The notes under the pieces are model-generated. The model made no database searches. It had not been told where the DNA came from and worked only from the letters and a program-made list of their open reading frames with translations. A program made the translations under genes and the position numbers. Below, piece after piece: positions 25,412 through 51,099 of a stretch of 64,000 bases of DNA. Origin of the DNA: Blastocatellia bacterium (GTDB lineage: Bacteria > Acidobacteriota > Blastocatellia > RBC074); the NCBI GenBank assembly GCA_035331565.1, contig DAOLKO010000010.1, positions 15,682 through 79,681 of the forward strand, in the 5' to 3' direction. Every line of letters starts with the position of its first letter. The first letter of the stretch is position 1.

Positions 25412-28204
25412 TTACTTACCCGTACTTAACTCAATCCAAGTCATTGCCTGTTTCAGCGGAATCACAAATGCCTCGCGTTCCTGTTTAAGCGGCTGACTGG
25501 GTTGATAGCTGCCGACACCGGTAGGTTTCGCAGGTTGTTCGATGCGCAGGCGGGCTTGCGGTGTTTCGGAAGTCGCACTCGCCAAGCTGACGCGCACCGC
25601 ACCGGTTTTCGCATTCAATTCGACGGTTTCAAAACGCCCGGCGTCCAGCGTCAGCCACAATCCGCGCGGCGCGAGGTAAACGCGCATCCGCATCGAATCT
25701 AATGGCGTCACGCTGACCCAGTCGCCTTTGCGCGTGACATTGCCGCCGAAGGCTTGCCAGCCGAATTCAGGATGATTGATGAGATAAGTTGCCGTGTTCA
25801 GCGCGTGCCCGAAAAAGTTCGGGCCGTAATCGCCGCTGTAAGCGTCCCATTTCAGCGTAGAGGGGAAAGAGTGAAACGCGGCGGACGCGAAGCCTTCACG
25901 GTCAATGTTGGTCAGTGCGCCCATCGTGCCGCCGTAACCGATGCGCAGCAGGTAATCGTCTTCAGGATGTTTGCGAAAATGCGACAGCGCCGGAATGGCG
26001 TTGATCCCCGAACCGTAATGATGAATCTGCCGTTCGATGCGCCGCAGTTTGCCGCCGTAAAGGAAATCCCAATAGCGGCGCGCGTTGCCGTTGTAGCCCC
26101 AATGCGGCACGGTCGGCATATAACCGATGATTGAATTGAGCGACACCAGCGCCTTGTCGTCGTAACCGAAATAATCGCACCACGCATAAACCTCTTCCTG
26201 CCCCGTGGAATCCCATGCCATTTCGCTGCCGAAGGGATACGCCTCGCGCTTCCAGCGGTCGCTGCGTTCGCGCATCAGCTTTTCAATATCGGCGGCCTTT
26301 TCCATCCAGCCTTCGCGTTTCAAGTCCAGCAGCACATTCAAGAAGATGTCGCCTTCCATCAAACCCAGTTCAACGTAGCCGACGCGGCGGCGATTGTTGT
26401 TGGCGTTGCGGCTGAAGGTGAACTTGGTTGTTTGATAAGCCTGTTCCAGATACCAATCCCACGGATGATTTTTGACCAGCCCTTCGGTGTTGCGCGCGAC
26501 GCGGTACATTGACCAATAGGCCGCGATGACGTGCGGATAGTTGTAGCCGCGCCCGATGGATTCGGCATCGGCCTTTTTCCAACTCGTCCACGTCGTCCAG
26601 TTCAAGGCCGAGTCGTATTGAAAGCCGGGCACGTCGGCGGGCGAATAAAACAGCATGCTTTTGCGCACGCCGTATTTGTTCGGGCCGTCGTTGTACTGCA
26701 ATCCGCCCCACAACACTTTGTCAATGAACTGCTCGTACTTGGCGATTTCTTCGCGTTTGGGTTGGCCGAACTGTTTCATCGCAGCGGCCAGCCACGAACC
26801 CGAACCGCCTTCATCGCCGAGGCCCGCAATCCAGACGCGGCTGTCCTGCGAAACGATCTTGTCGGCTTCACGGTCGTAACTCATCACCGAAGGGCTGCGA
26901 CGAAACGGATCGTTCGGATCAACGAACCATTGTTTGGTGAACAAGAAGTTGCCCAGGTCGGCTACGGCCTGCGTCGAAGGTTTGATGATGTAATAGCTAA
27001 TGGATTGTTGATTGCCGTCGGCATATTTCACGAGCAAACGCGCGCGTCCCCAGGTCTGACCGCGTAGCGTATACGCCTGCCAACCGTTGGCCGTGGGTTT
27101 GTCTTTGCGAATGGTGATTGCGCCCGCCGGCTCCGCCGCGATGACGGCGACTTTGCTTTTGGAATTCAGGAAAAGCTTGGCTTCGAGGTCTTGCGGCAAG
27201 ACGTAACCGGGAATGCCCACGGCCACCGGACGATTGTTGGCGGCCAGTGTTTTTTCGATGTTGCGGATTTCGTCCGAGACCAGAAAGCGCACGCCGTATG
27301 TCCGGCTCGCATTGGGCGCGAGCGTCGCGCTGGTCGGCGAATTCCATTGTTCGACGCCTTTCCATTCGGTTTCGGCATAAGCCCGGCTGTGCGACATCCA
27401 GGCAAACGTGCCTTCAAAAGTTTGCGCCGGGCGCATCGGTTCGTTGAGCAATTGCCAGGCTTCAAACGGCGTTTTGCCCTCTGGCACAACCACGAGCGCA
27501 GGGCCTTTGCCGCTCAGCCGCGTGACCTGCAAATAGCCCGCATCCTGCCCGATGTACGGATCGGCGAAGGAACAGATTTCGTGCGACTGTTGCAGATTGC
27601 GCCCGGTGATGTGGTTGTTGAACGCCATCGGAATGCCGAGCGCGCCGATTTCAAGCGGCTGCGAAGTCTTGTTTTTCAATTCGTAGCGCAACGCCAGCCG
27701 CCCATTTTCCAGCGCCCAACTGCGCGTGATCTGCACCGGACAATCGGCAGGCAGCGTCGGCGCAAGATCGGCGGCGGCGAGCGTTTGACCGGAAGCTGCA
27801 AGCGCCGTCACAGGTTTGCGCGCAGCAGCGGTGGAATACTCTTTCCAGTCGCTTCCGACGCGCACACGGATGGTCAAGTCGCCCAGATGTTGATGCCCAT
27901 CACTCGCGCGGCGTTCCAGCCGGTCGGCGGGCGTGAAATCGAATCCACTGCCGCCTTTCGGTTGTCCCTTCGGTATTAATGCCGCGATGGTTTGCGAAGC
28001 CTTGACCAGCTTCAGCGTGAAATCCGGCGTATCGAATTCCAGATAGCCTTGCTCCAAACCAAGCGTCGGCGTGGGCGTCGGCGTCGGTGCGGGTCTGCCC
28101 GGTTGAGCTTGTTGGTTTTGCGCGTGTCGGGTGAGAGGGAAGAGCGCCAGCACCAACAGGAGCGCGCTCGTTGCAACAATGATGGTTTGTTTGTTTTTGT
28201 TCAT
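25412..28204 (-). CDS. Large secreted protein of unknown function (930 aa).
   Basis: Signal peptide plus a PTPTPTP linker. Codon usage is consistent with the host. No family could be assigned from the sequence. Confidence 0.5.
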   Translation of the reverse strand: MNKNKQTIIVATSALLLVLALFPLTRHAQNQQAQPGRPAPTPTPTPTLGLEQGYLEFDTPDFTLKLVKASQTIAALIPKGQPKGGSGFDFTPADRLERRASDGHQHLGDLTIRVRVGSDWKEYSTAAARKPVTALAASGQTLAAADLAPTLPADCPVQITRSWALENGRLALRYELKNKTSQPLEIGALGIPMAFNNHITGRNLQQSHEICSFADPYIGQDAGYLQVTRLSGKGPALVVVPEGKTPFEAWQLLNEPMRPAQTFEGTFAWMSHSRAYAETEWKGVEQWNSPTSATLAPNASRTYGVRFLVSDEIRNIEKTLAANNRPVAVGIPGYVLPQDLEAKLFLNSKSKVAVIAAEPAGAITIRKDKPTANGWQAYTLRGQTWGRARLLVKYADGNQQSISYYIIKPSTQAVADLGNFLFTKQWFVDPNDPFRRSPSVMSYDREADKIVSQDSRVWIAGLGDEGGSGSWLAAAMKQFGQPKREEIAKYEQFIDKVLWGGLQYNDGPNKYGVRKSMLFYSPADVPGFQYDSALNWTTWTSWKKADAESIGRGYNYPHVIAAYWSMYRVARNTEGLVKNHPWDWYLEQAYQTTKFTFSRNANNNRRRVGYVELGLMEGDIFLNVLLDLKREGWMEKAADIEKLMRERSDRWKREAYPFGSEMAWDSTGQEEVYAWCDYFGYDDKALVSLNSIIGYMPTVPHWGYNGNARRYWDFLYGGKLRRIERQIHHYGSGINAIPALSHFRKHPEDDYLLRIGYGGTMGALTNIDREGFASAAFHSFPSTLKWDAYSGDYGPNFFGHALNTATYLINHPEFGWQAFGGNVTRKGDWVSVTPLDSMRMRVYLAPRGLWLTLDAGRFETVELNAKTGAVRVSLASATSETPQARLRIEQPAKPTGVGSYQPSQPLKQEREAFVIPLKQAMTWIELSTGK

Positions 28205-28355: not shown

Positions 28356-29039
28356 TTAACGAGAAGCCGGCACTCGTAAAAGCTGACGAATGGTTGCGCC
28401 GTTTTGGCCGGGGTGGGCTTCGAGCAAACACGCGGCGAAGCCTGTCAGGTGCGCCACAGCGAAGCTGATGCCGTTCAGATTGCGTTCGGGCGGCACGCCG
28501 GGAATCGGGCGCGCATAGCCTGAAGCCAGAAAACATTGTTTGGCTTCATCCCAGCGATACGCTTCGCGCGGACAATCCCAATCCAGCGACACGCCCAACA
28601 CCGACGGCAAACAGCCGGGCAGAGAATCCGCGCCGTTGATGTCGCGCGCGGCGACGACCGGCAAGTTTTCCGCTTGCGCCAACACGCGCTCGAACTTTTC
28701 CCGATGATTCAAATTCAGCGTCCCCAGGCTCAGGTTGACGAGGTGCATTTGATTCGCCGCGCACCATTCCAGCGCGCGCAAGATCGTTTCAATGTTGGTG
28801 GTCAGCGCGCGGTCAAAGACTTTGACGGCGTAAAGCTCTGCGTCCGGCGCTTTTTCGCGGATGGCTCCGGCGACAGCCGTGCCGTGGCCGATGAAATCCA
28901 GATACTGTTCTTCGGTTCCGCCGGGCGTGATGCGCATGCCGCCGGCCACGCCGCCGACGTGCGGATGAACTGGATTGACGCCACTGTCAATGATGGCGAC
29001 GCGGACGCCGCGCCCGGTCAGTGTTGGAGTTGCAGGCAT
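28356..29039 (-). CDS. qhpE: Small subtilisin-like serine protease, candidate QhpE (leader peptidase for the QHNDH gamma subunit).
   Basis: Catalytic triad contexts IIDSGV (Asp), GHGTAVAG (His) and GISFAVAHLTG (Ser) in only 227 aa. It overlaps the ABC exporter gene by 22 nt. Confidence 0.6.
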   Translation of the reverse strand: MPATPTLTGRGVRVAIIDSGVNPVHPHVGGVAGGMRITPGGTEEQYLDFIGHGTAVAGAIREKAPDAELYAVKVFDRALTTNIETILRALEWCAANQMHLVNLSLGTLNLNHREKFERVLAQAENLPVVAARDINGADSLPGCLPSVLGVSLDWDCPREAYRWDEAKQCFLASGYARPIPGVPPERNLNGISFAVAHLTGFAACLLEAHPGQNGATIRQLLRVPASR

Positions 29040-30703
29040 TCGTGGATTTTTCCGTTTTCCAGCGTCAGCACTTGATCGGCGATGGCGGCCAGCGCCGGAC
29101 GATGCGTGATGATGATTGCCGTGCGACCGCGCAGAGATTGCGACAGCGTCGCAGCCAGGCTTTGTTCGGTTGCAGCGTCGAGCGCGGCGCTCGGTTCGTC
29201 CAGCACCAGCACCGCCGGTTCGCGCAACAACGCGCGCGCAATGGCCAGTCGCTGGCGTTCGCCCACGGACAAAGCCAAACCGCGTTCGCCGACTTGCGTG
29301 TCGTAACCTTCCGGCAAAGCGGCGATGAATGCATCAAGCGCGGCGGCTTGCGCGGCGGCGGCGATTTTTTCGGGCGGCACGTCGGGCAAACCGTAAGCGA
29401 TGTTTTCGGCCAGGCCGGCGTTGAAAAGGATCGGCGTTTGATCCACCAGCAAAACGTGGCGGCGCACATCATCCAACCGCAAGTCGCGCAAATCGTGCCC
29501 GTCCAGTTTGACCGCGCCCGCCTGCGGATCGAACAACCGCACCATCAAATCGGCGATGGTGGATTTGCCAGCGCCGCTGCCGCCTGTGATGGCTGTGATG
29601 CTGCCTGCCGCGATGGTGAAACTTATGTCGTCCAGCACAAGGGCTTCGCGGTCGTGGCGAAAGCTGACGCGGTCGAAACGGATTTCACCGCGCGCTTCGT
29701 TGAGCGGCGCGGCGTGCGGACTTTCAACCACGTCTGGCGGAGTGTCGAGCAATTCAAAGACACGCCGCAACGAAACGCGCGCCGTCGTCAGGTTCGTGTA
29801 CAAACTCATCAGGCTTTGCACGGGCGCAAGCAGCCGCTGGTGATAAGCCATAAACGCCACCAGCGCGCCGATGCTGAGCGATCCTTTGATGACCAGCGCG
29901 CCGCCGTACAAAAACACCAGCGCTGTGGAAAGCGTCAGCATTGTGCCGGGCAGCGCGCCTGCCAAATACGAGGTCAGTTGCATCGCCAGCAAGGCATCAA
30001 TAAAGCCGCGATTGCGCGCGCGAAAACGCGCGACTTCGTGCGATTCGGCACGCGAAGTCACAATCAGCCGCATGCCTTGTAAGGATTCGATCAGAAAGCT
30101 GCCGATGTCCGCGCTGCGTTCGCGCAAGGTTTTGACCTGCCCGGTCAAACGTTGCTGGTAATGCCTGAGCGCCAGTACGCTGGGCGGAACCAGCACGATG
30201 CTGAGCAAAAACAAGCGCCAGTTCAGCCAAAGCATGATGGCGACGCTGCCGACGAAAAAGACCACATTAGCCAACACTGCCAGCAAACTGTCAGCGGCGA
30301 CGCGCTGGATTTCGGCGATGTCGTTGTTCAGGCGCGAAACGATGTCGCCCAGTCTGGTGCGCGCATAAAAGCGCGGCGAGAGCGTTTGCAGATGGCGGTA
30401 GAGCGCCAAGCGCATATCGAACAGCACTTCGGCGGAAACGGAGACGTAGCGGTAGCTGGACAGAATGTTCAGCGCAAATCCGAAGACAGTCACGACAACC
30501 ATCAGCGCGGCAACCTGCCACAGCGCGTTGAGATTGCGCCGCAACAAGGCTTCGTCAATCAGGAGTTTGGTGATGTAAGGCTGCGCCAGTCCGAGCAGCG
30601 TCGAGATCAGGCTGATGAACAAAACCAGCGTCAGCCGTTTCCAGTAAGGCGTGAGGTAAGCGAAAGCGCGGCGGTATTCGTTGAGCGAGGCGGGTTGTTT
30701 CAC
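29018..30703 (-). CDS. qhpF: ABC exporter with fused TMD and NBD, candidate QhpF.
   Basis: Six-TM N-terminal domain. Walker A is GGSGAGKST, signature LSVGERQRLAIARAL, Walker B LVLDEPSAALD. Confidence 0.75.
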   Translation of the reverse strand: MKQPASLNEYRRAFAYLTPYWKRLTLVLFISLISTLLGLAQPYITKLLIDEALLRRNLNALWQVAALMVVVTVFGFALNILSSYRYVSVSAEVLFDMRLALYRHLQTLSPRFYARTRLGDIVSRLNNDIAEIQRVAADSLLAVLANVVFFVGSVAIMLWLNWRLFLLSIVLVPPSVLALRHYQQRLTGQVKTLRERSADIGSFLIESLQGMRLIVTSRAESHEVARFRARNRGFIDALLAMQLTSYLAGALPGTMLTLSTALVFLYGGALVIKGSLSIGALVAFMAYHQRLLAPVQSLMSLYTNLTTARVSLRRVFELLDTPPDVVESPHAAPLNEARGEIRFDRVSFRHDREALVLDDISFTIAAGSITAITGGSGAGKSTIADLMVRLFDPQAGAVKLDGHDLRDLRLDDVRRHVLLVDQTPILFNAGLAENIAYGLPDVPPEKIAAAAQAAALDAFIAALPEGYDTQVGERGLALSVGERQRLAIARALLREPAVLVLDEPSAALDAATEQSLAATLSQSLRGRTAIIITHRPALAAIADQVLTLENGKIHECLQLQH

Positions 30704-30706
30704 AAT

Positions 30707-31717
30707 TCAAGCTTGGACTTTGTAATAGCACATAAACCCCGACGCGCAATGTTCGGGCGATTCGCGCAGGGATTTGGCGCGTTCGATGACGTGTAGCTTC
30801 GGAACGCCGTTGCGCGTGCGTTCGACGATGTCGCGCACCATTCGGACGCTCGCCATTTTCTTGAACGGCGCGGCTTCGCGTCCGACGATTTTCAGCGAAG
30901 CCACGCCGATGCGTTGCAAGTCTGGAATGGCGCACAAACCGCACGGGCCGTAAGGTAAACCTTTGGCCGTTGCGCCGCAGCCGTTGCCATTCAAGTACCA
31001 AACCCATTCGCGGTAATCGGTCAGGTTGCGCCGTAGCCAGTTGTGGCGGCGGCTCGTGAAGGTTTTGCCCGCCCATTCAAACCGCGTGTCCATTTCCGAC
31101 AATCCTGTGCAAAACGCGCCGACCGTGTGGTGATGCGTCGTCGAACAAAAGCCTTCTTCAAACGCGCAGCCGTCGTTGAGCATGAAGACTTCGATTTCAA
31201 CTTCGTCGCGGGTGTCGCGCGTGATGGTTTCGATTTCGGCCAGCGTCAGGCTGCGCGGCAGAATGACGCGCCGAACGCCAAAGTTCAGCAGAAAGCGCAC
31301 GGCTTCAGTGTTGAGCGTGGCGGCAACGGAGCTGACGTGCAGGTCGCAGGCGAGTTTGGCTTCGCTCAGCCGCAACAGCAGATTGATGTCGGTGACGATC
31401 AGTGCATCCACGCCGATTTCTTCAGAGAGTTTACGCGCCAGTTCCATCACCAGCGGCATCTGCTCGGCGGTGTAAAACGGGGAGTTGAGCGTGATGAAAA
31501 CTGGAAGCTTGCAGGAGTGCGCGTCATCCACCAGCCGTTTCAAATCGGCGTAAGTTTCCAGACTGCCGCCTTTGGGACTGCGGCGATTGAGCCAGACCGC
31601 GCCGGTGTATTTTTCCATCCACTCGCGCGGGACAATGCCGCAGAACAACTCTTCCGCGCCGGCGGCGGCCAGCATTTCCAGTTCTTCGTGCGCAGCGATG
31701 GGAGCCAGGATTTTCAT
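30707..31717 (-). CDS. U32-family [4Fe-4S] protein, UbiU/RlhA-like. A candidate O2-independent hydroxylase.
   Basis: MKILAPIAAHEELEMLAAAGAEELFCG N-terminus, U32 signature-like EVFMLNDGCAFEEGFCS, and additional Cys at CTGL and CGLC. It lies 3 nt upstream of qhpF. Confidence 0.65.
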   Translation of the reverse strand: MKILAPIAAHEELEMLAAAGAEELFCGIVPREWMEKYTGAVWLNRRSPKGGSLETYADLKRLVDDAHSCKLPVFITLNSPFYTAEQMPLVMELARKLSEEIGVDALIVTDINLLLRLSEAKLACDLHVSSVAATLNTEAVRFLLNFGVRRVILPRSLTLAEIETITRDTRDEVEIEVFMLNDGCAFEEGFCSTTHHHTVGAFCTGLSEMDTRFEWAGKTFTSRRHNWLRRNLTDYREWVWYLNGNGCGATAKGLPYGPCGLCAIPDLQRIGVASLKIVGREAAPFKKMASVRMVRDIVERTRNGVPKLHVIERAKSLRESPEHCASGFMCYYKVQA

Positions 31718-31725
31718 GGCAGGGG

Positions 31726-32358
31726 TTAGTCGAGAATGCCTGCGAGTTTGAGCGTCAGCCCGTCGAACAACAGTTCGCCGGTGATGGTCTTGGGATGATT
31801 GAGTACTTTGGCGCGCGCGCCGGGACGATAAACGTGAGCTTTCTTTTCCAGCGGATCAATCAGCCAGCCGAGTTGCGCGCCGTTTTCCAGATATTCTTCC
31901 ATCTTCTCTTTGAGCATATCGAGATCATCGCTTTCAGAGCGTAACTCGACGACAAAGTCGGGGCAGATGGGCGCAAATTTCTTGCGCAATTTTTTGGGAA
32001 TGGCTTCCCAACGCTCACGCGCGATCCAGGAAAGGTCGGGCGAGCGTTTCGCGCCATTGGGCAGCGTGAACCCCGTGGCGGAATCAAAGCCGACGCCCGT
32101 TCCGTCCGTTTTGGCCCAAATGCCAAACTCGACGGCGAGATTGAAGTTCCGATTCCCGCCTTCACTGCCCGTCGGCATCATGATTATCATTTGCCCCTCC
32201 TTGGTCATCTCGATCCGCAGTTCATTGTTGTTGGCGCAGAACTCGAAGAATTCATCGTCGGTCACTTTTTTGCGAAGCGGCCCAAGGCGAATAACCATTG
32301 TGTCCAAATCAGGCGGAGCGGAGCGCGGAGTAATTTGCGGCGATAGGCGTGTACTCAT
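31726..32358 (-). CDS. Uma2-family (DUF820) PD-(D/E)xK endonuclease-like protein.
   Basis: 210-aa product. The pattern IEMTKEGQMIIMMPTGSEGGNRNFNLAVEFGIW...PDFVVELRSESDD is typical of Uma2. The real start is ATG 32358; the longer listed ORF overlaps the upstream gene. Confidence 0.6.
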   Translation of the reverse strand: MSTRLSPQITPRSAPPDLDTMVIRLGPLRKKVTDDEFFEFCANNNELRIEMTKEGQMIIMMPTGSEGGNRNFNLAVEFGIWAKTDGTGVGFDSATGFTLPNGAKRSPDLSWIARERWEAIPKKLRKKFAPICPDFVVELRSESDDLDMLKEKMEEYLENGAQLGWLIDPLEKKAHVYRPGARAKVLNHPKTITGELLFDGLTLKLAGILD

Positions 32359-32369
32359 AATTGATCCTC

Positions 32370-33296
32370 TCAGATCGCTATCATCGGCAGGCGTGGTTGA
32401 AAAATCAATCTTGCGATTCGGCCTTGCGCGGCTTGTGCCGGCAATGCGCGCAGCATTGGTTCGCTGTGGTGATAAAAATATGAATTGCCTTTCAGATAAA
32501 ACTTCTGGTCGCGATTGCCGAAGGGAGAATTGGTGTACTGGTATTCCAGCAAATGCGTCTGGCATTCGTGACGGCAAGGCGCGCCGGGCTGGAACTTGTC
32601 TGCTTTGTGGTAGTGCAAGCCCGCCGCCATGCAAACGCGGCTGGTGCTGATAAATCCGAACGGCAGGTAAATAGCGATGGCCAGGCCACCCACGTTCAGA
32701 TCGTTGCCTTGCGGCAGATTGTCCATTTCGATCATTTCGACGCCGAACCGCCTGAGCATCATCGCGTAACTGGCGTTGTCCAGGTTGGAGCCTTGCAGCA
32801 CGTTCAAGGCGGAAGCAGGCGCGGGCGCAGCGGCATACATCGTCGTCACGCGCGGGTCGCGCAAGGATTTGTTCAGCAAACGGCCTTGCACGGGGCGCAG
32901 CGTCGGATAGTCCCGGCGCAATAAATTCAGCACGCCCCAATCGTTGAAGACGACTTCATTGCCGGCCTGCTCAGCCAGCGCATCAAACAGGGGGCGCAAA
33001 GCGGTGATGCCTTCATTGCCGACATAAGGCGTCAATAACGTAAAAGCCAGATTGCGCGATTGTGCAGCGGCGAGCGCCTGCCGGAGCGAAGCGGCTGACG
33101 GCAACAGGTGTTCGCAAAATTCGTTTCCGAAAACGCAACCGTCGAAGAAGACTTCGCCGTGATGTTCCTGAATAACTTTTGCGGCGAGTGCGACCAATGG
33201 TTGGATGATGGCACTGGCTTCAAACGTAGCCAATCGGGCGAGGCTGAGTTCGCCTTGCAAATCGTCAGCGCCTTTGATGTGCAATCGCCATTGCAT
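32370..33296 (-). CDS. Second U32-family protein, UbiV-like (one N-terminal and three C-terminal Cys).
   Basis: VFFDGCVFGNEFC ... NDWGVLNLL ... SRVCMAAGLHYHKADKFQPGAPCRHEC parallels the UbiV 4-Cys cluster arrangement. Confidence 0.5.
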   Translation of the reverse strand: MQWRLHIKGADDLQGELSLARLATFEASAIIQPLVALAAKVIQEHHGEVFFDGCVFGNEFCEHLLPSAASLRQALAAAQSRNLAFTLLTPYVGNEGITALRPLFDALAEQAGNEVVFNDWGVLNLLRRDYPTLRPVQGRLLNKSLRDPRVTTMYAAAPAPASALNVLQGSNLDNASYAMMLRRFGVEMIEMDNLPQGNDLNVGGLAIAIYLPFGFISTSRVCMAAGLHYHKADKFQPGAPCRHECQTHLLEYQYTNSPFGNRDQKFYLKGNSYFYHHSEPMLRALPAQAAQGRIARLIFQPRLPMIAI

Positions 33297-33301: not shown

Positions 33302-34423
33302 TTACTGCCGAGGTTTGACGACCAGCAGGTTCGTCGTCATATCGCCGTCAAAGGTGATGACGCGCTGTTGTTTGAAGGTTTGCGCGTCGTAACATTCGAT
33401 GGTCGGGCCTGCGCCGTGGATGTAAAGCTGTTTCCCGTCGCCGGAGAGCGTGAACGAAAACCGCGAGCGACTTTCAAATTCGTGTTTGTTGACCAGTTTG
33501 CGCGCCGCCAGATCGAACACCCAAAACTCCGTGCGCCGCGTCGCGCCGTTGCCGTTGAAGGCCACGGTGTAGCCGGTCTTGCGATCCGGCGAAAGTTGCA
33601 GGCCGGTCATGCCTGTGGTGGCCGGGCCAATCGGCGTGAAATCCAGCTTGCGCGTATTCAGGTCTAACCGCGCGAGGCCGAAAATGCGCCGCCGCACCAC
33701 CGGGTCAGTCGCGTTGAAGACCGAAGTCACTATGCTGGGGTCTTCGTTGGGATCGCCGCCCGCGCCGATCCGCACAGGGAAAATGCCCGGATGCTGCGGT
33801 TTGGACAGTTCAATCTTGTCTATTTGCTTGAACTCTTTGAGGTCGAAAATCAGCACGTCTTCCTTGAACACGTAAAGCAGCTTGCCGTCGGGTGAAACGC
33901 GGTAGCCGGCCTGAAAGCCGAAGGGCGAATCGTATTCTTTGGGAAAGTCGAAAGTCTTGGTGATTTTCTTTTGCGCCAGATCAATCACGGCGAATTTTGG
34001 TTTTTCGATTTCAAAGCGATCAATCTTTTTCACCGCGGCAGTGATCGTGGCGTATAGGAATTGATCGGTCGGGTCGGGCGCAAACCCATTCATACGGACG
34101 ATGCGTTCGCCTTCGTTGAGCGTGAACGAATTGACGACTTTGCGCGTGGCCAAATCAATCACTTCGATGCCGTTGTTCCAGGTGCTGACGTAGATTTTCT
34201 TTTTGTCGTAAGACAGCGTCAGCCCTTGCGGCGTGCCGGTGTTGAGTTGAATCCGGTCAACGACTTTGCCTTGCGCTTCGTCAATCACCAGCACCGTGCG
34301 CTGCCAAACGCCGGTGTAAAGCATCGCGCCCGCCGCCGCTTTTGTTTGCGCGAATGCAGCGGCAGCCAACAGCAGAATGAAAGCAACAGCCAATGTGAAT
34401 CGCATATCGTTTCCCTCGTTCAT
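33302..34423 (-). CDS. qhpB: QHNDH beta subunit (7-bladed beta-propeller), candidate QhpB.
   Basis: Signal peptide, ~350-aa repeat-rich beta-strand protein. Its position in the operon matches qhpB. Confidence 0.6.
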   Translation of the reverse strand: MNEGNDMRFTLAVAFILLLAAAAFAQTKAAAGAMLYTGVWQRTVLVIDEAQGKVVDRIQLNTGTPQGLTLSYDKKKIYVSTWNNGIEVIDLATRKVVNSFTLNEGERIVRMNGFAPDPTDQFLYATITAAVKKIDRFEIEKPKFAVIDLAQKKITKTFDFPKEYDSPFGFQAGYRVSPDGKLLYVFKEDVLIFDLKEFKQIDKIELSKPQHPGIFPVRIGAGGDPNEDPSIVTSVFNATDPVVRRRIFGLARLDLNTRKLDFTPIGPATTGMTGLQLSPDRKTGYTVAFNGNGATRRTEFWVFDLAARKLVNKHEFESRSRFSFTLSGDGKQLYIHGAGPTIECYDAQTFKQQRVITFDGDMTTNLLVVKPRQ

Positions 34424-34441: not shown

Positions 34442-34984
34442 TCAGAAGTCAAAACGATAAGCCACCCAATAATCAGAATGGCTTCGACAAAAATCTCTGA
34501 AATACTCAACGCGCGCTATCATCTCTTTTCTCATCACACGCAAATCATCCGGGTGTTCGTGTATTGATTTGAGCATACAATCCACGTGTTCGGATGTGAG
34601 CAAGAGAAAGTCACATTCCTCTTCCCGGAAATACTTGCCGCAAGAAATAGATCCCGGTGGGTCAACTCCTGAAAACACGTGAGCGTGACATCCCCAGTAA
34701 TCAAGATGGACGGTTTCTTCGCCTAAGCAGAAATCCAACGCTAGCTGTTTTTTGAAATCGTTCAGTTTCGTCTCAGCAAGCAATTCCTCAACCGCTTTCG
34801 TTACGGAAGTCCCATTTTGGCTCATCACAAAGACTAATGAACTATGGAGAGTTGCACTAGCTTGATCCTTAGCTTCCAAGACATCAATGTTGTCTTCTAA
34901 AAAGCGCGTGAGCGTTGGCCGATTCATCTTAAGAATTCGGTCAGAAAGCCGCTTGTCGTAAAGTTGTATCCAGTCAGTTCCCAT
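34442..34984 (-). CDS. Low-GC Cys/His-rich 180-aa protein of unknown function, inserted between qhpC and qhpB.
   Basis: The DNA is conspicuously AT-rich relative to its flanks. Motifs include HLDYWGCHAHVF, CGKYFREEECDF and HVDCMLKSIHEHPDD. Confidence 0.5.
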   Translation of the reverse strand: MGTDWIQLYDKRLSDRILKMNRPTLTRFLEDNIDVLEAKDQASATLHSSLVFVMSQNGTSVTKAVEELLAETKLNDFKKQLALDFCLGEETVHLDYWGCHAHVFSGVDPPGSISCGKYFREEECDFLLLTSEHVDCMLKSIHEHPDDLRVMRKEMIARVEYFRDFCRSHSDYWVAYRFDF

Positions 34985-35000: not shown

Positions 35001-35345
35001 TCACGGAAAGACTAGATCAATGTTGCGCCAGTCTTTAGTTGCGCTGGCGCACTTGCTCGTCCAGTCGGGATAGTTGTTCAGATGATCCGGCACTTGCGCG
35101 GGCCAGAAACAACTGATGTAGCAGTCATAAAGATCGCGTTCGACAGGCTGGCACAAACCCGCCGTCCCGCCTGTGGAATCCACTTCCCAGCCGGGCGAAA
35201 AGACCAGCGAACAACCCATTGGATAATGCGGGCGAGTTGGCGCGGGCGGGCCGCCTTGTTGCAGCGCAACGATGTCGCCGAATTCAGCGGCCACGTATTC
35301 TTCAATCCGCACTGCTTTGCGGTTGATTGCCCTGATGTGTTTCAT
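35001..35345 (-). CDS. qhpC: QHNDH gamma-subunit precursor (CTQ- and thioether-bearing small subunit), candidate QhpC.
   Basis: 115-aa product. The leader MKHIRAINRKAVRIEEYVAAEF is followed by a Cys/Asp/Glu/Trp-rich core GCSLVFSPGWEVDSTGGTAGLCQPVERDLYDCYISCFWPAQ. Its ATG overlaps the qhpD stop (ATGA). An AAGGAAA RBS is present. Confidence 0.65.
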   Translation of the reverse strand: MKHIRAINRKAVRIEEYVAAEFGDIVALQQGGPPAPTRPHYPMGCSLVFSPGWEVDSTGGTAGLCQPVERDLYDCYISCFWPAQVPDHLNNYPDWTSKCASATKDWRNIDLVFP

Positions 35346-36772
35346 AGCGTTTTCCTTTCGTCGAAGTGAGCCAAAAATTGCGGATTGCGCGTTGCCAGTT
35401 CGCCATAGACGCGCAAACAAACGTCCGTCCAACCGCGAATCCAATCGCAGTAATGCAAATTTGCCTGCCCCGTGTCGCCGTAGCGCACGAAGGCTTCGTG
35501 GTAACAGCCGCCCGAACAAACAGGCCGCGCCCAACAGGTCAGACATTCGGGTTTGCGGTTGATGTGGCCGCGTTCCAGAAAATCCGCTTGTTGCGCACGG
35601 TCAATGCCGGTTTGGATTGTGCCGAGTTTGTGCGCGTCGGCGTCCACGAACCGATGGCAGGGCGCGATGTCGCCCGAAGGGCTGACGCCCAGCAAGCCCA
35701 AGCCCGCGCCGCACGGATGCGCTTTGCTGATGCCCGCGTGCAATTCGGCCAGCGTGTCGCTGACGTTTGAAAAGCCGTGATGTTCATTGCGCAGCGCGCA
35801 TTCCAGATATTCTTCCGCCAGCGCGGTGAACTGTTCCAGAATGCTGTTTAAGCCGTTTGTGCCGATGGCGTAAAGCCGCACAGGCGAAGTCGTGACCGGC
35901 GCGAAACCGACTTCGTGAAAGCCCAGTTCGTCTTTCAAGTGGCGATAGATTTTCTTCACGTCCACGACTTGCGAAGTCAGCGTGACGCGCGCGGCGATGG
36001 GGCGCGTTCGGTGTTTGGCCAGCAAGGCTTTGATCTTCGGCGCGATCATTTCGTAACTGCCTTGCCCGTTGGAAAACACGCGCAACTGGTCGTTCATTTC
36101 CTGCGGCCCGTCAATGCTGATCGTCACGCCGACGTGTTGTTCGGCCAGATATTCGATCACCGGTTCGGTCAGCAAAGTCGCGTTCGTCGTCAGGCTGAAA
36201 TCAATGTATTTGCCCGCCGCGTGAGCCTGTTGCCGGGCGTAATCAATCGTGGCGCGAACGACTTTGAAGTTCATCAAAGTTTCGCCGCCGAAAAAGGTCA
36301 GATGCACTGCACGACGTCCGGGCGATTGCGCCAACAGGAAGTCCACGGCGGCGAAAGCCGTCGCTTCGTCCATGAACTTCGTCTTGCCTTCGGGCATGGC
36401 CAAGCGATCTTCGCCGAATTCGTAGCAGTACTTGCACGAAAGATTGCATTGATTGGTAACGTTGAGTACCAGCGTTTGCAGCGGGAAAGGCATCGGCGCG
36501 GGCTGCACTTCGTCGGCGTAACCGTGGCCGTTGGTGAGGGCGCGCGACTGATACAACTCGGCGACGGTTTCTTCGGCTTCGACGTAATTGAAGCCTTGCG
36601 TGGTTAGATCGGCGACCAAATCCAGGCGTTCGCGTTCGCCCGCGCGCAAGGTTTGGATGACGGCGGACGAAAGTTCATCGAGCGCGAAAATCGCGCCGCT
36701 CGGCACCAGGTAAAGATAGTCTTGCCCGCCGCCGCTGAACTCGTGAAATTCGCCGAGCCGCAATGTCGTCAT
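35342..36772 (-). CDS. qhpD: Radical SAM/SPASM peptide maturase, candidate QhpD (thioether-forming).
   Basis: CNLSCKYC CxxxCxxC motif, C-terminal SPASM cysteines CHRF...CLTCWARPVCSGGCYHE. The start is taken at ATG 36772 (MTTLRLGEF), just after the qhpA stop. Confidence 0.75.
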   Translation of the reverse strand: MTTLRLGEFHEFSGGGQDYLYLVPSGAIFALDELSSAVIQTLRAGERERLDLVADLTTQGFNYVEAEETVAELYQSRALTNGHGYADEVQPAPMPFPLQTLVLNVTNQCNLSCKYCYEFGEDRLAMPEGKTKFMDEATAFAAVDFLLAQSPGRRAVHLTFFGGETLMNFKVVRATIDYARQQAHAAGKYIDFSLTTNATLLTEPVIEYLAEQHVGVTISIDGPQEMNDQLRVFSNGQGSYEMIAPKIKALLAKHRTRPIAARVTLTSQVVDVKKIYRHLKDELGFHEVGFAPVTTSPVRLYAIGTNGLNSILEQFTALAEEYLECALRNEHHGFSNVSDTLAELHAGISKAHPCGAGLGLLGVSPSGDIAPCHRFVDADAHKLGTIQTGIDRAQQADFLERGHINRKPECLTCWARPVCSGGCYHEAFVRYGDTGQANLHYCDWIRGWTDVCLRVYGELATRNPQFLAHFDERKTL

Positions 36773-38550
36773 CGCGCTACCTCCGGTTGATCCCATTTCA
36801 TATAAAGCGGAACTGTGACGACTAAGTAAGACCGCGCCGTTAATGGCTTGGCGTCTTTATCCTGCTGCCTGGTGTCCTGCTGTTTAATGGTCGCCACGAT
36901 CCACAGGTCGCCGTAGTTGTTGCGCGAATGTTTCCGCTGCGGATTGGGGCCTTCAATCGCCGGCGTGAACAATCCCGTCGCGCTCAGCTTGCCGGAATAG
37001 TCTTTGTCGTCGTCGTCGTAAATCGCGGGAAATTCTTCGACCGTCCATTCAGCGTCCATCGCGCCGAGCGGCAAATCGTCAGCCGTTTGCGGTTTGTTGT
37101 CGGGGCCGCGGAAATAGCCTATGGCCTCGAACTGCCAATAGCCTTTGGGGTATTTCACGCCGCCCAACCGCGCCAGGGCGTTATCAGGATTCACTTTGAT
37201 GTAATCCACTTTGTCGTAAATCGTCACCGCGCCGGGCACGAAGGCGCGCCGAACAGCCAAGTCGCGTTTGCCGAGCGGCGCTTTTTCTTCAATGTCCACG
37301 GCGACGGTGAGCGCATCGCGCCCAACGTTGACGATGCGCGTGACTTTGACGCCGGGGCCGAAATCAATGTCTTCGGGTTTCAAGTCCGACGGGAAGTTCG
37401 CGCCGAAGATTTTCACCTGTTCATTGGCGGCGGGCGCTTTGAGCGCGAAACGATCCAAGCCCAGTGCAATCGTTCCGGTGTCAACGCGCCGCAGCGTGAG
37501 ATCAATGCCGAACTCTTCGTAATCGCCCCAGAACCAGCGACCGTCCATTTGCGACTGGTCGCGCGAAACCAGCATGACTTCGCGCATTTCGCGCGGATCG
37601 TCGCCGGGATCGCCGTTGCCGTTTTCGCGCGCGCCGCCTTGCGAACGCCCGCGCCAACTGTAGCCGGTGTAAACCAAACTGCGCCCTGTGCGCGTGAAGG
37701 TCTTGCCGCTTTTGACGAAAGTCAGTTGCGTGCGCGTCGTGAATTCGTCTTCTGCCGCGCCGGGTTCAATCGTCATTTCGCCGTAAACGCGACCTTTGCC
37801 GACTTGATAGCCGCTGACCAGCCAACGCCCGGCAAGTTTGGGCGTGCGCGAATTCGCCCGCCACGCAGCCCATTCCGGCGTGTGCAGCGGAAAGGTTTTG
37901 GCCAAAAACTCCACGGCGCGATCCGCTGGATGGCGCGTGTCTGTTCCCGGCGGCGGAGGTGGCGCATCAGGCGGCGGCGGGAAGCGGCGGAAGCCTTGAA
38001 ATTCGACGACGGGGAAATAGCCAACGTGCATGTTGACCAGCAAATCCCACTCTTCTTTCGAGCGGCGCTGCGACTGCACGCGTCCGTAGGTGTGGCAGAT
38101 CGTGCAGGTGTTACGCAGGTTTTCATCGGGAACGGTTTCGTCAAGCACGCGATGCTCGACTTCATAAAACGCAGGCCGCGCTTCTTCCGGTGCCAAGCCG
38201 TGGTTCGCACTCAGGTAACGGACAATCTGACGCGCTTCCTCCGGCGACAACGTCAGACCGTTCAAGCGAACCATGCGTTTGATGATTTGTTGCCAGCCTT
38301 CGGGTGTAGTGCGCTCCCACGAAATGCGCGTCAGATTGCCTTTGTCATCGGCCTTGTGACAGGTCGAACATTTGGCAATGACAAGTTGGTTGGTGACGGG
38401 AATGCCCTCCTCACCGGGCGGTTTGGCGGGCGGCGCGGCTTGTGGCGTTTGTGCCGGCTGCGTTTGTGATTGTTGAGTTTGGGAATAAACCGTGAAACCT
38501 ACGGGCAGCAGCAACGTGCCCATCAAGACGAACAGCTTGAGCAAGCGCAT
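36769..38550 (-). CDS. qhpA: QHNDH alpha subunit (dihaem cytochrome c N-domain plus beta-sandwich domains), candidate QhpA.
   Basis: Signal peptide and two CxxCH motifs (CSTCH, CTICH) in the first ~170 aa, followed by a ~400-aa beta-rich region. Confidence 0.7.
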   Translation of the reverse strand: MRLLKLFVLMGTLLLPVGFTVYSQTQQSQTQPAQTPQAAPPAKPPGEEGIPVTNQLVIAKCSTCHKADDKGNLTRISWERTTPEGWQQIIKRMVRLNGLTLSPEEARQIVRYLSANHGLAPEEARPAFYEVEHRVLDETVPDENLRNTCTICHTYGRVQSQRRSKEEWDLLVNMHVGYFPVVEFQGFRRFPPPPDAPPPPPGTDTRHPADRAVEFLAKTFPLHTPEWAAWRANSRTPKLAGRWLVSGYQVGKGRVYGEMTIEPGAAEDEFTTRTQLTFVKSGKTFTRTGRSLVYTGYSWRGRSQGGARENGNGDPGDDPREMREVMLVSRDQSQMDGRWFWGDYEEFGIDLTLRRVDTGTIALGLDRFALKAPAANEQVKIFGANFPSDLKPEDIDFGPGVKVTRIVNVGRDALTVAVDIEEKAPLGKRDLAVRRAFVPGAVTIYDKVDYIKVNPDNALARLGGVKYPKGYWQFEAIGYFRGPDNKPQTADDLPLGAMDAEWTVEEFPAIYDDDDKDYSGKLSATGLFTPAIEGPNPQRKHSRNNYGDLWIVATIKQQDTRQQDKDAKPLTARSYLVVTVPLYMKWDQPEVAR

Positions 38551-38937: not shown

Positions 38938-40068
38938 ATGCCAAGACAACGGACTGGTTACGTTTGGTACTGGAAAGAACGCAAATCCTGGTATGCCCGC
39001 CTGACCTTCACGGATGCCAGCGGCAAACGGCGCAATGTCTGCCGCTCCGTCGAAAACAAAACCGAAGGCAACAAACTGCTCAAACAATTGATCCGGGATT
39101 TGGAAGATAACGGCGAGAAAGCGTTGGATTCCGAAAAGCTGACCTTTCGCCAACTCGCCAAGCTTTACTCCGACCGCAAACTTATCGCCGCTGAATATCA
39201 AGGTGACACGAAAGTGCGCGGATTGCGCTCGCATAAAAACCAGCAAGGGTATCTGAAAACACTGGTTGACCATTTCGGCGGGCTGCGCGTGCGCGCCATC
39301 ACGCACAGCGACCTGGAAGATTACCGAGCCAAACGATTGCAAACCATAACCCGACGAGGCGCGCAACTCAGCGCGGCCAGCGTCAACCGGGAATTAAGCC
39401 TGATGCGCGCGGTTTTGAATTTTGCCCGGCGACAAGGCTGGCTCAGCCGAAATCCTTTTGATGCGGGCGATCCGGTTATCAAACCCGCCGACGAAGTGAA
39501 GCGCGAGCGCGTGTTGACGTTTGAAGAAGAAGGGCGGTTGTTACTGGCTTGCGCTGCACCGCGCGAACATTTGCGCCCGATGCTGATTTTCGCGCTTGAT
39601 ACCGGCTTGCGGAAATCCGAAATGCTGGCTTTGCGCTGGGCCGACGTTGACCTTGAATCCGGGATGATTCGCGCGCGTAGCTCGACCACCAAGACGCGCA
39701 AAGCCCGAACTATAGGTATGACTTCGCGCCTGAAAGCCGAGCTTGAGCGAATGCGAGAGTCGGCGGGCGATGATCCTGAATCGCGCATCTTCAACCAGAA
39801 AGACATGAAGCGCTCCTTTGCGACGGCTTGCGAACTGGCCGGTGTTGAAAACCTGCACTGGCACGACCTGCGCCACACCGCGACAACGCGAATGGTTGAA
39901 GTCGGCCTTGCGCCGATGATTGTCATGAAGCTGACCGGCCATACTCAGATGGCAACCTTTGCCCGCTACGTCAACGCCAACGATGAAGCGGCGACCAAAG
40001 GCGCGGAAGCTCTCGACGCTTACCGGCAAAACGCTCTCGGCGAAAGCACGCCGGAGAGAATCAACTGA
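38938..40068 (+). CDS. int: Tyrosine-type site-specific integrase.
   Basis: C-terminal HDLRHTATTRMVEVG...ATFARYVN carries the R-H-R-Y catalytic signature. It is adjacent to the att repeat. Confidence 0.85.
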   Translation: MPRQRTGYVWYWKERKSWYARLTFTDASGKRRNVCRSVENKTEGNKLLKQLIRDLEDNGEKALDSEKLTFRQLAKLYSDRKLIAAEYQGDTKVRGLRSHKNQQGYLKTLVDHFGGLRVRAITHSDLEDYRAKRLQTITRRGAQLSAASVNRELSLMRAVLNFARRQGWLSRNPFDAGDPVIKPADEVKRERVLTFEEEGRLLLACAAPREHLRPMLIFALDTGLRKSEMLALRWADVDLESGMIRARSSTTKTRKARTIGMTSRLKAELERMRESAGDDPESRIFNQKDMKRSFATACELAGVENLHWHDLRHTATTRMVEVGLAPMIVMKLTGHTQMATFARYVNANDEAATKGAEALDAYRQNALGESTPERIN

Positions 40069-40175
40069 AACGGCTTCGGCTCGCCTTACGCCTGATTAGC
40101 TACCCGGCGGACAGCGGTGAAACCTTCGCTCCGTTGGAGAGCCGAAAACACGAAGGACACCTGGAAGGGGAGACA

Positions 40176-41450
40176 ATGCAAAATGAGCAAGAGTTTCGTC
40201 AGATCATAGAAAGGATTGATGAAGTGACGCGGGCGCTTTTGCAAGTAAGGGATTACAAGGCGGAGGCGATTGACCTTAATGGTGCAGACGCTCCTTTGAA
40301 ACTTCTAGCGCGAACTTGGCGGGACACTCAGTTACCAAGTCAGTCTGATGAAAAGCTCGCCAATATGATACGGCAGCGGTTAGAGGAAACATTATCTCCA
40401 ATCTTGTGGATTGCTACGGGACAAATAGTTTCTGGTGCGCTCGAATACGCTACGCGCGAAACTGGGGCAACCGTAATGCCCACCTTTGATGGACTTTCAA
40501 GGGTGGGCATAGCTGAGCAACCATATTCCGAAGATGAAGAAGAGGTTTGGTTGATTGGTTTAGCGGAGAGAATACGAATAAAAGGAACGCTTCAGGTGAG
40601 CCTAAATTGGGGAGAGATTGAATCTATTCTTGATGATTTTTTTGGCTCGTCTCTTTCAGCGTGTAAAACTGAGCAAGAAGCAAAAACGGCTTGGAATAGC
40701 TTTCTCAAGAAGGAGCAAAAGCACCTCAAAAAAAGAATGGGGGATTCACCGGTAGAAAAAATCGTAGAGACCAACCGGAAGGTTGAAATGCTGACGGATA
40801 AACAAAGAGAGCAGATGCGAAGCGATCTGGTAAAACTCGCTTCGCAAAACTTCAAATTAAACATAGATCACGTTATTCGTTGTGCTATTGCGGCCAATCT
40901 GTTCTTGAGCCTGGTGTATTGGGAATACGCTTTTGATCGTGAAAAAGGAAGAGCCGAGAAGGAAGTTCAGCAATCACTGCCCGGAGTAGAAGAACTAAGA
41001 GACATAATAGGTAAGAGATTGAATGACTGGCTTATTCAACCGCTTCCAAAAAGACCGCGCCTAGGTAAACAAGCAAAAGCTGATTTAAGCCAACTGCGCC
41101 AGTTTTACGAGGAAGTTATTGGGGATTGGCGTGATGCCTTTAGCTTCTGTCGTGAGGCTCTCAATTCTCGTTCAGCAACCCGCCGTGCAACTTGGAAAGA
41201 AGACCTCAAAAAATACTATCCCAGTCTGCGAGATTACGACGATTTGATTGAGCGGCTACAGCCCATAGAGAACTGGCCAGAGCAGGTAGCTGCGAAATGT
41301 TCAGAGCAGGGGGGCGAGGATAAGCCTGAAGACATCGCTTACGAACATGCTGCACGACTATGCGACGCAGCCAATTACACGTACAAGCTGTCTTCGCTTA
41401 TTGAGGAATACCGCAAGCAAGGGCGACAAAAAAAAGAAGAAAAAGAATGA
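40176..41450 (+). CDS. Island-encoded hypothetical protein (~425 aa, acidic, AT-richer).
   Basis: ORF with a GGAGA RBS before ATG 40176. No recognisable domain. Confidence 0.45.
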   Translation: MQNEQEFRQIIERIDEVTRALLQVRDYKAEAIDLNGADAPLKLLARTWRDTQLPSQSDEKLANMIRQRLEETLSPILWIATGQIVSGALEYATRETGATVMPTFDGLSRVGIAEQPYSEDEEEVWLIGLAERIRIKGTLQVSLNWGEIESILDDFFGSSLSACKTEQEAKTAWNSFLKKEQKHLKKRMGDSPVEKIVETNRKVEMLTDKQREQMRSDLVKLASQNFKLNIDHVIRCAIAANLFLSLVYWEYAFDREKGRAEKEVQQSLPGVEELRDIIGKRLNDWLIQPLPKRPRLGKQAKADLSQLRQFYEEVIGDWRDAFSFCREALNSRSATRRATWKEDLKKYYPSLRDYDDLIERLQPIENWPEQVAAKCSEQGGEDKPEDIAYEHAARLCDAANYTYKLSSLIEEYRKQGRQKKEEKE

Positions 41451-41665
41451 AAATTTTGCACTCGACCAACACCACACAATTTAGAAAAAAAAGAATTGAG
41501 ACTTCTGAAAAGCTTATCAGTTTGGCCTAAATTGCAGGTTGAGGTAACTCAAGACGATCTGACAAAACAGTGGGCAAGAGCCGTTCGATTTCTGAGGCCG
41601 CGCGGCACTTGCCCTTGACCTAAACCCGCCGCTTTTGGCGGCAAAGCACAGGAGTTTTTTAAATT

Positions 41666-41896
41666 ATGTCCCAAGTGTCTTTTGAAGCCAACACCAGCCC
41701 AAAACAACCAATCCTCGAAACCGCTGTCTACGGGCGCGACGAGGCAATCGCTATCACCGGCTTTTCGCTCTCGACGCTGATCCGCGCCGAAGAGAAAGGA
41801 AAGCTGCGAGGTCGCTACGAAGGCCGTCGCCGATTTTATTTCGGGCGCGATCTGCTGCGCTGGCTGGGAGCCTGCGAGGAAGGAGGTGCGGAGTGA
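41666..41896 (+). CDS. AlpA/excisionase-like small HTH DNA-binding protein.
   Basis: 76-aa product. DEAIAITGFSLSTLIRAEEKGKL is an HTH resembling phage AlpA/Xis. Confidence 0.55.
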   Translation: MSQVSFEANTSPKQPILETAVYGRDEAIAITGFSLSTLIRAEEKGKLRGRYEGRRRFYFGRDLLRWLGACEEGGAE

Positions 41897-44801: not shown

Positions 44802-44805
44802 GGGT

Positions 44806-45065: not shown

Positions 45066-45082
45066 AATAGGGAGCGGGCAAA

Positions 45083-45993: not shown

Positions 45994-46100
45994 CGAATCG
46001 CCGGGCACGACCAGCCCCGCCAAACTGTAGAATTTTTCTTGCCTCAGCCCGCGATGCGGCATAGACTCCGCGCGTCATCAAACGATGCTCCCCCCGCGTC

Positions 46101-47027: not shown

Positions 47028-47030
47028 AAC

Positions 47031-51025: not shown

Positions 51026-51099
<74 letters not shown>

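Follow-up and report, generated by a model that had tools for sequence, protein, structure and literature searches.

How does a quinohemoprotein amine dehydrogenase (QHNDH) acquire its cysteine tryptophylquinone (CTQ) cofactor when the qhp operon that encodes it lacks a gene for QhpG, the flavoprotein that dihydroxylates the precursor tryptophan in the characterised pathway and that has been shown to use O2 for this purpose (PMC7876137)? The question is raised by a 64,000-nucleotide (nt) stretch of DNA from a Blastocatellia bacterium (GenBank assembly GCA_035331565.1, contig DAOLKO010000010.1, positions 15,682 to 79,681 of the forward strand; hereafter the window), whose qhp operon includes two further genes, for proteins of 308 and 336 amino acids (aa). 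We read this pair, with a probability of roughly 60%, as a non-orthologous replacement of QhpG by a hydroxylase resembling UbiU/UbiV of the U32 family. The more specific proposal, that the pair would be the first U32-type iron-sulfur (Fe-S) hydroxylase to act on a protein, dihydroxylating a peptidyl Trp without O2 and thereby providing an oxygen-independent route to CTQ, is made tentatively, with the odds a little short of even. The case is built on the gene content of the locus, the integration of the pair in the operon, its strict pairing, the conservation of its cysteines and of the substrate site, and the mutual exclusion of the pair and QhpG-type genes.

The gene pair and QhpG-type genes in qhp operons

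All genes from qhpA through qhpE are co-directional, forming one tightly packed row on the minus strand that runs from 38550 down to 28356 in the order qhpA-qhpD-qhpC-(orf180)-qhpB-308 aa-(Uma2)-336 aa-qhpF-qhpE, with gaps of 3-8 nt around the 308-aa and 336-aa open reading frames (ORFs; 32370..33296 and 30707..31717, respectively). The identity of the operon is given by qhpA, qhpD and qhpC, which are adjacent and all score over the equivalog cutoffs. The first (36769..38550) encodes the 593-aa dihaem alpha subunit of QHNDH (TIGR03908, 513 bits, cutoff 274, E 7e-154), with the Pfam domains Dehyd-heme_bind and Qn_am_d_aII, aIII and aIV. The second (35342..36796) encodes the radical SAM/SPASM maturase responsible for the thioether crosslinks of QhpC (TIGR03906, 591 bits, cutoff 453, E 2e-177); translation probably begins at Met9 (36772), a residue that is invariant in the QhpD alignment and whose codon overlaps the stop of qhpA. 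The third (35001..35345) encodes the 114-aa gamma subunit precursor (NF037958, 132 bits, cutoff 50). The genes for the divergent 373-aa beta-propeller beta subunit QhpB (33302..34423; TIGR03907, 73.9 bits, E 1e-20, cutoff 223) and for the 227-aa subtilisin-like leader peptidase QhpE (28356..29039; NF049966, 158.7 bits, cutoff 165, E 1e-46) score under their cutoffs, yet these models are their best matches, both genes are homologous to genes of the Novosphingobium/Paracoccus operons and their positions are conserved, those of qhpB, together with its homology, at all related loci. Beside qhpE, in a place that is likewise conserved, lies qhpF (29018..30703), encoding a 561-aa ABC exporter (Pfam ABC_membrane and ABC_tran) that is 54% identical to its homologue in the Novosphingobium qhp operon.

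The substrate of the missing step is intact. In an alignment with Paracoccus and Novosphingobium QhpC, the QhpC of the window keeps the CTQ residues Cys37 and Trp43 (Paracoccus numbering) together with the three thioether Cys-Asp/Glu pairs, so that hydroxylation of the Trp should still be required; the sequence around this Trp is nearly identical between loci that carry the pair (U32-type loci) and those of the QhpG type. The original prediction that no QhpG-type flavoprotein gene is present here held up in the 64-kb window, where QhpG was found neither by tblastn with Novosphingobium QhpG-like and Paracoccus QhpG queries (the latter verified, from a Paracoccus plasmid, with 405 bits on NF049967) nor with an iterated hidden Markov model (HMM) of QhpG and QhpG-like proteins; the other large window ORFs that were scanned include no flavin monooxygenase.

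To place the window among other qhp loci, the analysis drew on loci with the pair in assemblies and genomes, which besides the window came to 13 records or 11 distinct loci (L004 and L006 repeat L003 and L005); on the GTDB species genomes, in which an alignment of QhpD found at least 576 loci, the best 80 of them being surveyed, nearly all labelled Acidobacteriota and one labelled Heliobacteriaceae; and on 80 metagenome loci with close homologues of the 308-aa protein (49-77% identity), some of which repeat the same contigs. An HMM survey of the ORFs within 10 kb in the best 80 GTDB loci detected the pair in 7, always with both genes together, and a short QhpG-like flavoprotein of 323-347 aa in 29, with neither in the remaining 44. 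In this co-occurrence survey, of the kind that the original prediction had proposed, the pair and a QhpG-like gene stand together in 0 of the 80. Nor was a QhpG-type gene found in any of the 80 metagenome loci. Counted over acidobacterial qhp loci, QhpG-like genes occur in 29 of the 73 others and in none of the U32-type, and among loci with at least 8 kb of sequence on both sides in 0 of 19 U32-type loci versus 21 of 47 others (one-sided Fisher p 1.4e-4, a value uncorrected for phylogeny and hence for shared ancestry).

The two states also appear to have changed places. In a quick neighbour-joining distance tree of QhpD, which carries no support values, they are interleaved, the QhpG-like L015 falling inside the main clade of U32 loci and two U32 loci, L064 and L070, lying among QhpG-like loci and loci with neither gene, which suggests repeated swaps between the pair and the QhpG-like gene. 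The slot directly after qhpB, which the pair takes in the window, is filled by the QhpG-like gene in Novosphingobium RL4 and several Bryobacterales; QhpD of Novosphingobium is 57% identical to that of the window, and QhpD of Paracoccus 39%. Among NCBIfam models QhpG matches the short flavoproteins best, at 56-62 bits, with LodB and GoxB next, and because the QhpG cutoff is 240, standard annotation would not call them QhpG. This short QhpG/LodB/GoxB-like family is seen at L008 (12994-13989, on the 1.8-Mb replicon of Novosphingobium sp. RL4) and at 29 acidobacterial loci.

The pair itself is a regular part of the operons in which it occurs, namely those of the window, of the 11 further distinct assembly and genome loci and of about 50 among roughly 55 informative metagenome loci. 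The order qhpA-qhpD-qhpC-qhpB followed by a gene for about 310 aa and a U32 gene for about 340 aa recurs in Blastocatellia, Bryobacteraceae and other Acidobacteria at QhpD identities of 60-86%. Four homologue loci from other Acidobacteria show it with proteins of 309-321 and 338-382 aa, the two genes overlapping by 4 bp in two of the four, and a flavoprotein gene is absent from all of them. In Acidobacteria the pair is found almost only in qhp operons, directly after qhpB or qhpD and often with the 4-bp overlap, and in the best 120 clusters the qhp-linked partner proteins share 67% identity or more. The metagenome loci repeat this picture: the U32 partner is present in 53 of the 55 with room downstream, qhpB in 50 of the 51 with room upstream, and qhpD, qhpC and qhpB together in 21 of the 23 that extend 5 kb or more upstream. 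The U32 gene comes after the 308-like gene in each distinct context for which there is a full gene list (the window, 11 qhp loci and 5 non-qhp loci).

Two loci, L017 (10001-15998) and L154, have the order qhpD-V-U-qhpF-qhpE (V and U being the 308-like and 336-like genes) without qhpA, qhpC or qhpB within 10 kb, so that the pair travels with the maturation genes; such a maturation-only cluster is either a split operon or a remnant. An ORF upstream in L017 is likely a transposase, judging from a reading of its sequence. One U32-type qhp locus, L013 (CAYXVZ010000001.1), carries the label 'uncultured Heliobacteriaceae bacterium'. It shares 76% QhpD identity with the window, and since its closest relatives in the comparison are all Acidobacteria, an error of binning or taxonomy may lie behind the label.

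Two proteins and their cysteines

The 336-aa protein matches the U32 profile PF01136 with 118.1 bits (cutoff 22.4, E 4.7e-34) over profile positions 7-230 of 233, and on this sequence evidence is an unambiguous member of the family. Its top NCBIfam matches, UbiU (NF047963, 89.5 bits, cutoff 440) and TrhP (58.9 bits), both fall under the equivalog cutoffs, and with E. coli UbiU it shares 24% identity (E 7e-17); it is therefore classified as a U32 protein that is not a UbiU equivalog. The predicted EVF...GC...GFCS motif is present as E176-V-F...G-C184-AFEEGF-C191-S. Here C184 and C191 (CX6C), together with C203, are invariant and align with the UbiU ligands C169, C176 and C193. Nine cysteines are invariant across the qhp-linked clade, in which an invariant HHH also follows C191, and eight of them (C26, C184, C191, C203, C259, C262, C324 and C330) are still conserved after distant partner-U32 proteins are added. 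Eight cysteines would be enough for more than one metal site, and because only three of the eight match UbiU ligands, a second site, undescribed for UbiU, is suggested.

In the 308-aa protein four cysteines, C61 and C222-x18-C241-x3-C245, do not vary among 74 relatives, the most distant at 27% identity, and belong to the only twelve columns that are invariant across them. This is the 1+3 layout with CX3C that had been predicted for it, and it parallels C39, C180, C193 and C197 of E. coli UbiV; the flanking motifs 'LP..S.RC' and 'F.L.G' are also matched in the pairwise alignment with UbiV. An alignment of the family against a diverse U32 alignment with hhalign gave a probability of 55% (E 1.2e-4) over 151 collinear columns starting from residue 1 of both; against the single E. 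coli UbiV or UbiU sequences hhalign was uninformative (probability 0.5%). The AlphaFold2 model built from a diverse alignment is a beta/alpha barrel of high confidence (predicted local distance difference test (pLDDT) 94.8, predicted template modelling score (pTM) 0.93). The window protein is identical to a 'hypothetical protein' from a Blastocatellia MAG, which places the window in Acidobacteriota. Its family is large, with 397 clusters at 90% identity in a first search and 1676 representatives at 50% identity at E values up to 1e-3. A sequence search of both proteins against PDB chains gave nothing useful, and tblastn of the 308-aa protein against PLSDB plasmids gave no match.

The closest parallel among known systems is UbiU-UbiV (YhbU/YhbV) of E. 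coli. Like it, the window pair consists of adjacent genes of which one has a strong and the other a weak or divergent U32 match; the CX6C and third cysteine of the 336-aa protein align to UbiU, the 308-aa protein has the UbiV-type N-terminal cysteine plus C...CX3C, and both subunits are predicted TIM barrels. Unlike it, the pair comes without a UbiT-like lipid-binding partner, is arranged V-like then U-like, the reverse of ubiU-ubiV, and sits in a protein-cofactor maturation operon rather than one for quinone biosynthesis, for which reason the presumed substrate is a peptidyl Trp. The U32 RNA hydroxylases TrhP and RlhA, with which we take B. subtilis YrrN/YrrO to be grouped, belong to the same family and perform a prephenate-dependent, O2-independent ring hydroxylation of the kind proposed for the pair. 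They differ in having RNA substrates and a CX6CX15CX3C arrangement within one chain (PMC11574389), the cysteines of the window pair being split over two. QhpG (NF049967) and the short QhpG-like proteins share with the pair the operon and, in some loci, the slot after qhpB; crosslinked QhpC is the presumed substrate of both, and Trp43 has to be dihydroxylated in either case (PMC7876137). In fold, cofactor and oxygen source they are unrelated to it, being flavoproteins, QhpG using O2, as opposed to a TIM-barrel pair with putative Fe-S clusters, and no sequence similarity between the two kinds was found. LodB and GoxB likewise hydroxylate a peptidyl Trp toward CTQ but are QhpG-related flavoproteins, unrelated to the window pair.

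Evidence against the replacement and alternative explanations

Besides the shared ancestry that the exclusion statistic leaves uncorrected, a number of findings weigh against the idea that a hydroxylase like UbiU/UbiV has taken the place of QhpG. No Pfam or NCBIfam model, PF01136 included, matches the 308-aa protein, and a profile of its family scores E. coli UbiV at -0.8 bits, for which reason its description as U32 by HMM was dropped. Foldseek run on the pLDDT 94.8 model ranks GH18-type TIM barrels first, with a U32 structure outside the top 50. A U32 structure had been the top match for an earlier, weaker model only and was not upheld by the better one. In the 336-aa protein the fourth UbiU ligand, C232, is without a clear counterpart (C247 is conserved only in the qhp-linked clade, and C259 and C262 are other candidates for the position), and five of its conserved cysteines (C26, C259, C262, C324 and C330) are extra to the subfamily, none of them being found in UbiU. 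Moreover, known U32 substrates are all small molecules or RNA, never protein (PMC11574389), and no U32 hydroxylase, UbiU/UbiV included, has been reconstituted in vitro (PMC10990095, PMC11574389).

As to the 308-aa protein, PF01136 recognises its relatives poorly, with weak matches in 2 of 74 (best E 0.0045) and 11.4 bits for a Desulforamulus relative; in a control the same profile gave 38 bits for E. coli UbiV and 228 bits for UbiU. We regard it as probably a remote U32 relative, UbiV-like in architecture, whose membership is not demonstrable by HMM. The original prediction of two U32 genes between qhpB and qhpF is thereby confirmed for the presence of both ORFs and for the 336-aa protein, and fails for the 308-aa protein as far as a PF01136 match is concerned. 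The expected conservation of four putative cysteine ligands is complete in the 308-aa protein, where all four are invariant, and extends to the three that align with UbiU in its partner. The larger claim that the pair serves CTQ biogenesis is likewise supported in part: the pair is integral to a subset of qhp operons and stands there in place of a QhpG-type gene, never beside one, while the parts left unsupported include the U32 membership of the 308-aa protein by HMM.

A further point on the same side comes from the loci with neither gene. This class makes up 26 of the 52 full-flank acidobacterial qhp loci, with neither gene within 10 kb, and many of these also have no qhpE or qhpF nearby, so that the hydroxylase gene appears to be often unlinked in this phylum. 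A QhpG-like gene could accordingly lie outside the 64-kb window in this genome too, and its absence from the window does not show its absence from the genome. A search for something else at these loci by ORF clustering over 89 loci gave no third candidate specific to them; a hidden third hydroxylase was rejected, since L051, L066, L016, L081, L045 and L074 show only unrelated neighbours, and the 'neither' loci are simply loci with unlinked maturation genes. The pair might then act at another step of QHNDH maturation, such as the Cys37-Trp43 crosslink, the oxidative step from dihydroxy-Trp to the quinone or some additional modification, with an unlinked QhpG-like flavoprotein hydroxylating the Trp. 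The frequent unlinking fits this explanation, as does the fact that the late CTQ enzymes are not fully assigned in canonical systems, for which a review table gives 'QhpG, QhpA' (PMC11951088). An added function, however, predicts that the pair should co-occur with a linked QhpG-like gene at some loci, and it does so neither in the window nor in the 11 distinct loci or the 80 metagenome loci, which argues against this role without settling the matter; canonical operons, moreover, mature CTQ without such a pair (PMC7876137). We consider this explanation unlikely, though worth keeping in view.

The pair also has relatives outside qhp operons, and these count against it being intrinsically dedicated to CTQ. 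When a distant member sharing 35% identity with the 308-aa protein served as the query, relatives were found in Dehalococcoidia, Vicinamibacterales and cultured strict anaerobes, among the latter Desulfosporosinus orientis, D. acidiphilus, Desulforamulus ferrireducens, D. ruminis and Acididesulfobacillus acetoxydans. In all five contexts compared (L090, L091, L092/L093, L094 and L095, from Desulfosporosinus, Desulforamulus, Vicinamibacterales and Acididesulfobacillus) the V-like gene is directly followed by a U32 gene for 327-337 aa, and qhp genes are absent from the neighbourhood. Neither Pfam nor NCBIfam recognises the V-like half of this widespread pair; the U32 partners are 36-45% identical to the 336-aa protein of the window, and the eight cysteines are common to all. 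An arylsulfotransferase gene (PF05935/PF14269) lies directly upstream of the pair in two of the five, from unrelated lineages (L091, 6409-8265; L092, 8614-9990), and there are hints that the module is linked to phenolic or aromatic substrates. In L092 a gene for a DoxX/MauE-like membrane protein is found downstream (12036-12689). Judged from these comparisons, the pair would be an old, obligate two-gene module, which fits a heterodimer, with the qhp-linked form as one specialised, tightly conserved branch, and the module may have a general role in anaerobic hydroxylation, acting on aromatic side chains or on metabolites with aromatic rings.

The stand-alone or arylsulfotransferase-associated pairs of Desulfosporosinus, Desulforamulus, Acididesulfobacillus and Vicinamibacterales would also suit a housekeeping U32-type hydroxylase of RNA, quinone or another aromatic compound that had landed in the operon without any role in QHNDH, the more so as the known U32 substrates are RNA or ubiquinone precursors (PMC11574389). 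The qhp-linked clade, however, is almost exclusively confined to qhp operons, in a fixed position with packed or overlapping genes and through QhpD divergence to about 60% identity, and at L017 and L154 the pair stays with qhpD, qhpF and qhpE where the structural genes are missing; we think a passenger of this kind improbable. It is very improbable that the U32 protein acts as a peptidase that processes or degrades QhpC or its leader, as the family name Peptidase U32 (historically 'collagenase'), the JGI label 'putative protease' for homologues and the leader-cleavage step of the qhp pathway might suggest, since the dedicated leader peptidase QhpE is already encoded in the same operon, the invariant cysteine sets of both proteins point to metal clusters, and those U32 members with such motifs that have been characterised are associated with hydroxylation (PMC10990095, PMC11574389).

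Proposed reaction and further features of the locus

Returning to the replacement of QhpG, the pair would by analogy be a cytoplasmic two-subunit Fe-S enzyme built like UbiV/UbiU, to which we ascribe on the same grounds a heterodimeric form and the binding of Fe-S clusters; its substrate, its reaction and its independence of O2 we infer in this way as well. Both proteins lack an obvious signal peptide in their N-termini, which were read directly, and the pair is therefore taken to be cytoplasmic like QhpD and QhpG, both of which act in the cytoplasm (PMC7876137). In the sequence of events that we propose, QhpD would put three thioether crosslinks into the QhpC precursor, and the pair would then bind crosslinked QhpC and hydroxylate the indole ring of the CTQ-precursor Trp43 twice. 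U32 proteins are the enzymes known to hydroxylate aromatic rings independently of O2, taking the oxygen from prephenate (PMC10990095, PMC11574389). If the pair works as UbiU/UbiV, TrhP and RlhA do, it would draw its oxygen atoms from an organic compound, for instance prephenate, and not from O2, and its Fe-S clusters would carry off the electrons. The product would be exported by QhpF and its leader removed by QhpE.

The named records with the pair are soil Acidobacteria (Blastocatellia, Bryobacterales and Terriglobia), which are mostly aerobes. For this reason the advantage of such a route may lie in making the cofactor under fluctuating or low oxygen, or in compatibility with the oxygen-sensitive QhpD, rather than in strictly anaerobic life; 'anaerobic' refers here to the chemistry of the enzyme family and not to a demonstrated lifestyle of the host. 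TrhP and RlhA reportedly also work in aerobically grown E. coli. The E. coli UbiUVT pathway has likewise been studied for adaptation to changing respiratory conditions (PMC10470549).

The original prediction also described the route as new, and in the library searched we found no publication linking U32 proteins to quinohemoprotein amine dehydrogenase or tryptophylquinone; the searches gave no co-mention of 'quinohemoprotein amine dehydrogenase' with 'U32' or of 'tryptophylquinone' with 'UbiU'. The paper on QhpG is silent on peptidases or alternatives (PMC7876137). A 2025 review of protein-derived cofactors has CTQ matured by QhpG/QhpA, LodB and GoxB only, and the tryptophylquinone maturation enzymes it covers (QhpG, LodB, GoxB and MauG) are all flavoproteins or haem proteins (PMC11951088); a 2024 review limits the substrates of U32 oxidases to ubiquinone and RNA (PMC11574389). 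NCBIfam (June 2026) has no model for either the 308-aa or the 336-aa protein. With moderate confidence, the case can be described as a known enzyme class in a new role combined with a known pathway that has a non-orthologous step.

If the reading is true, a protein-derived quinone cofactor can be made without O2, and the U32 'oxidases' extend from RNA and quinone substrates to proteins. Since the qhp system has an established assay, in which the purified QhpC-QhpD complex is followed by a gain of 32 Da (+32 Da) in mass spectrometry (PMC7876137), and U32 hydroxylases still await reconstitution in vitro, the pair could offer the easiest way into U32 chemistry, from the source of the oxygen to what the clusters do. 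The 308-aa family, unannotated in spite of its 1676 clusters at 50% identity, would mark a two-subunit U32 class that current profile libraries miss.

Two small genes interrupt the operon in the window. The original prediction placed the pair between qhpB and qhpF, which is right as to the two genes, but left unmentioned a gene between them (31726..32358 on the minus strand) for a 210-aa Uma2-family endonuclease (PF05685, E 5e-41; weak PADLOC match to PDC-S03). Besides the window this insertion occurs only at L001 and L011 among the assembly and genome loci and at 3 of the 80 metagenome loci, and it is a lineage-specific insertion, not a component of the system. Between qhpC and qhpB lies orf180 (34442..34984, minus strand; 180 aa), which nothing in Pfam, NCBIfam or PADLOC matches significantly, BT_2802_fam of NCBIfam (E 0.04) being the only match listed; it lacks a counterpart at any other locus compared, and it is probably outside the system. 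Both genes were rejected as system components on account of their absence from most related loci. At L001 a PDDEXK_3 gene occupies the same spot as orf180, and the qhpC-qhpB junction seems prone to insertions of small genes.

Elsewhere in the window, the stretch 877-4857 encodes HEC-01A (391 aa, E 5e-63) together with HEC-01B (210 aa, E 3e-19), a candidate anti-phage pair, and after them a 732-aa protein that PADLOC matches weakly to helicases of the Cas3 and DpdF types. Directly upstream of qhpA are a tyrosine-recombinase-like gene (38938-40068, assigned by eye) and a Prim-Pol/DUF927 gene (42102-44801); a stretch of low GC content at about 46-48 kb and a tRNA-Arg(CCT) gene at 51026-51099 lie further along, and the region 38938-51099 is probably an integrated mobile element. 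Downstream of qhpE the window encodes a 930-aa DUF5695 protein (25412-28204) and a 985-aa PSCyt1/PSCyt2/PSD1 cytochrome-domain protein (21738-24695).

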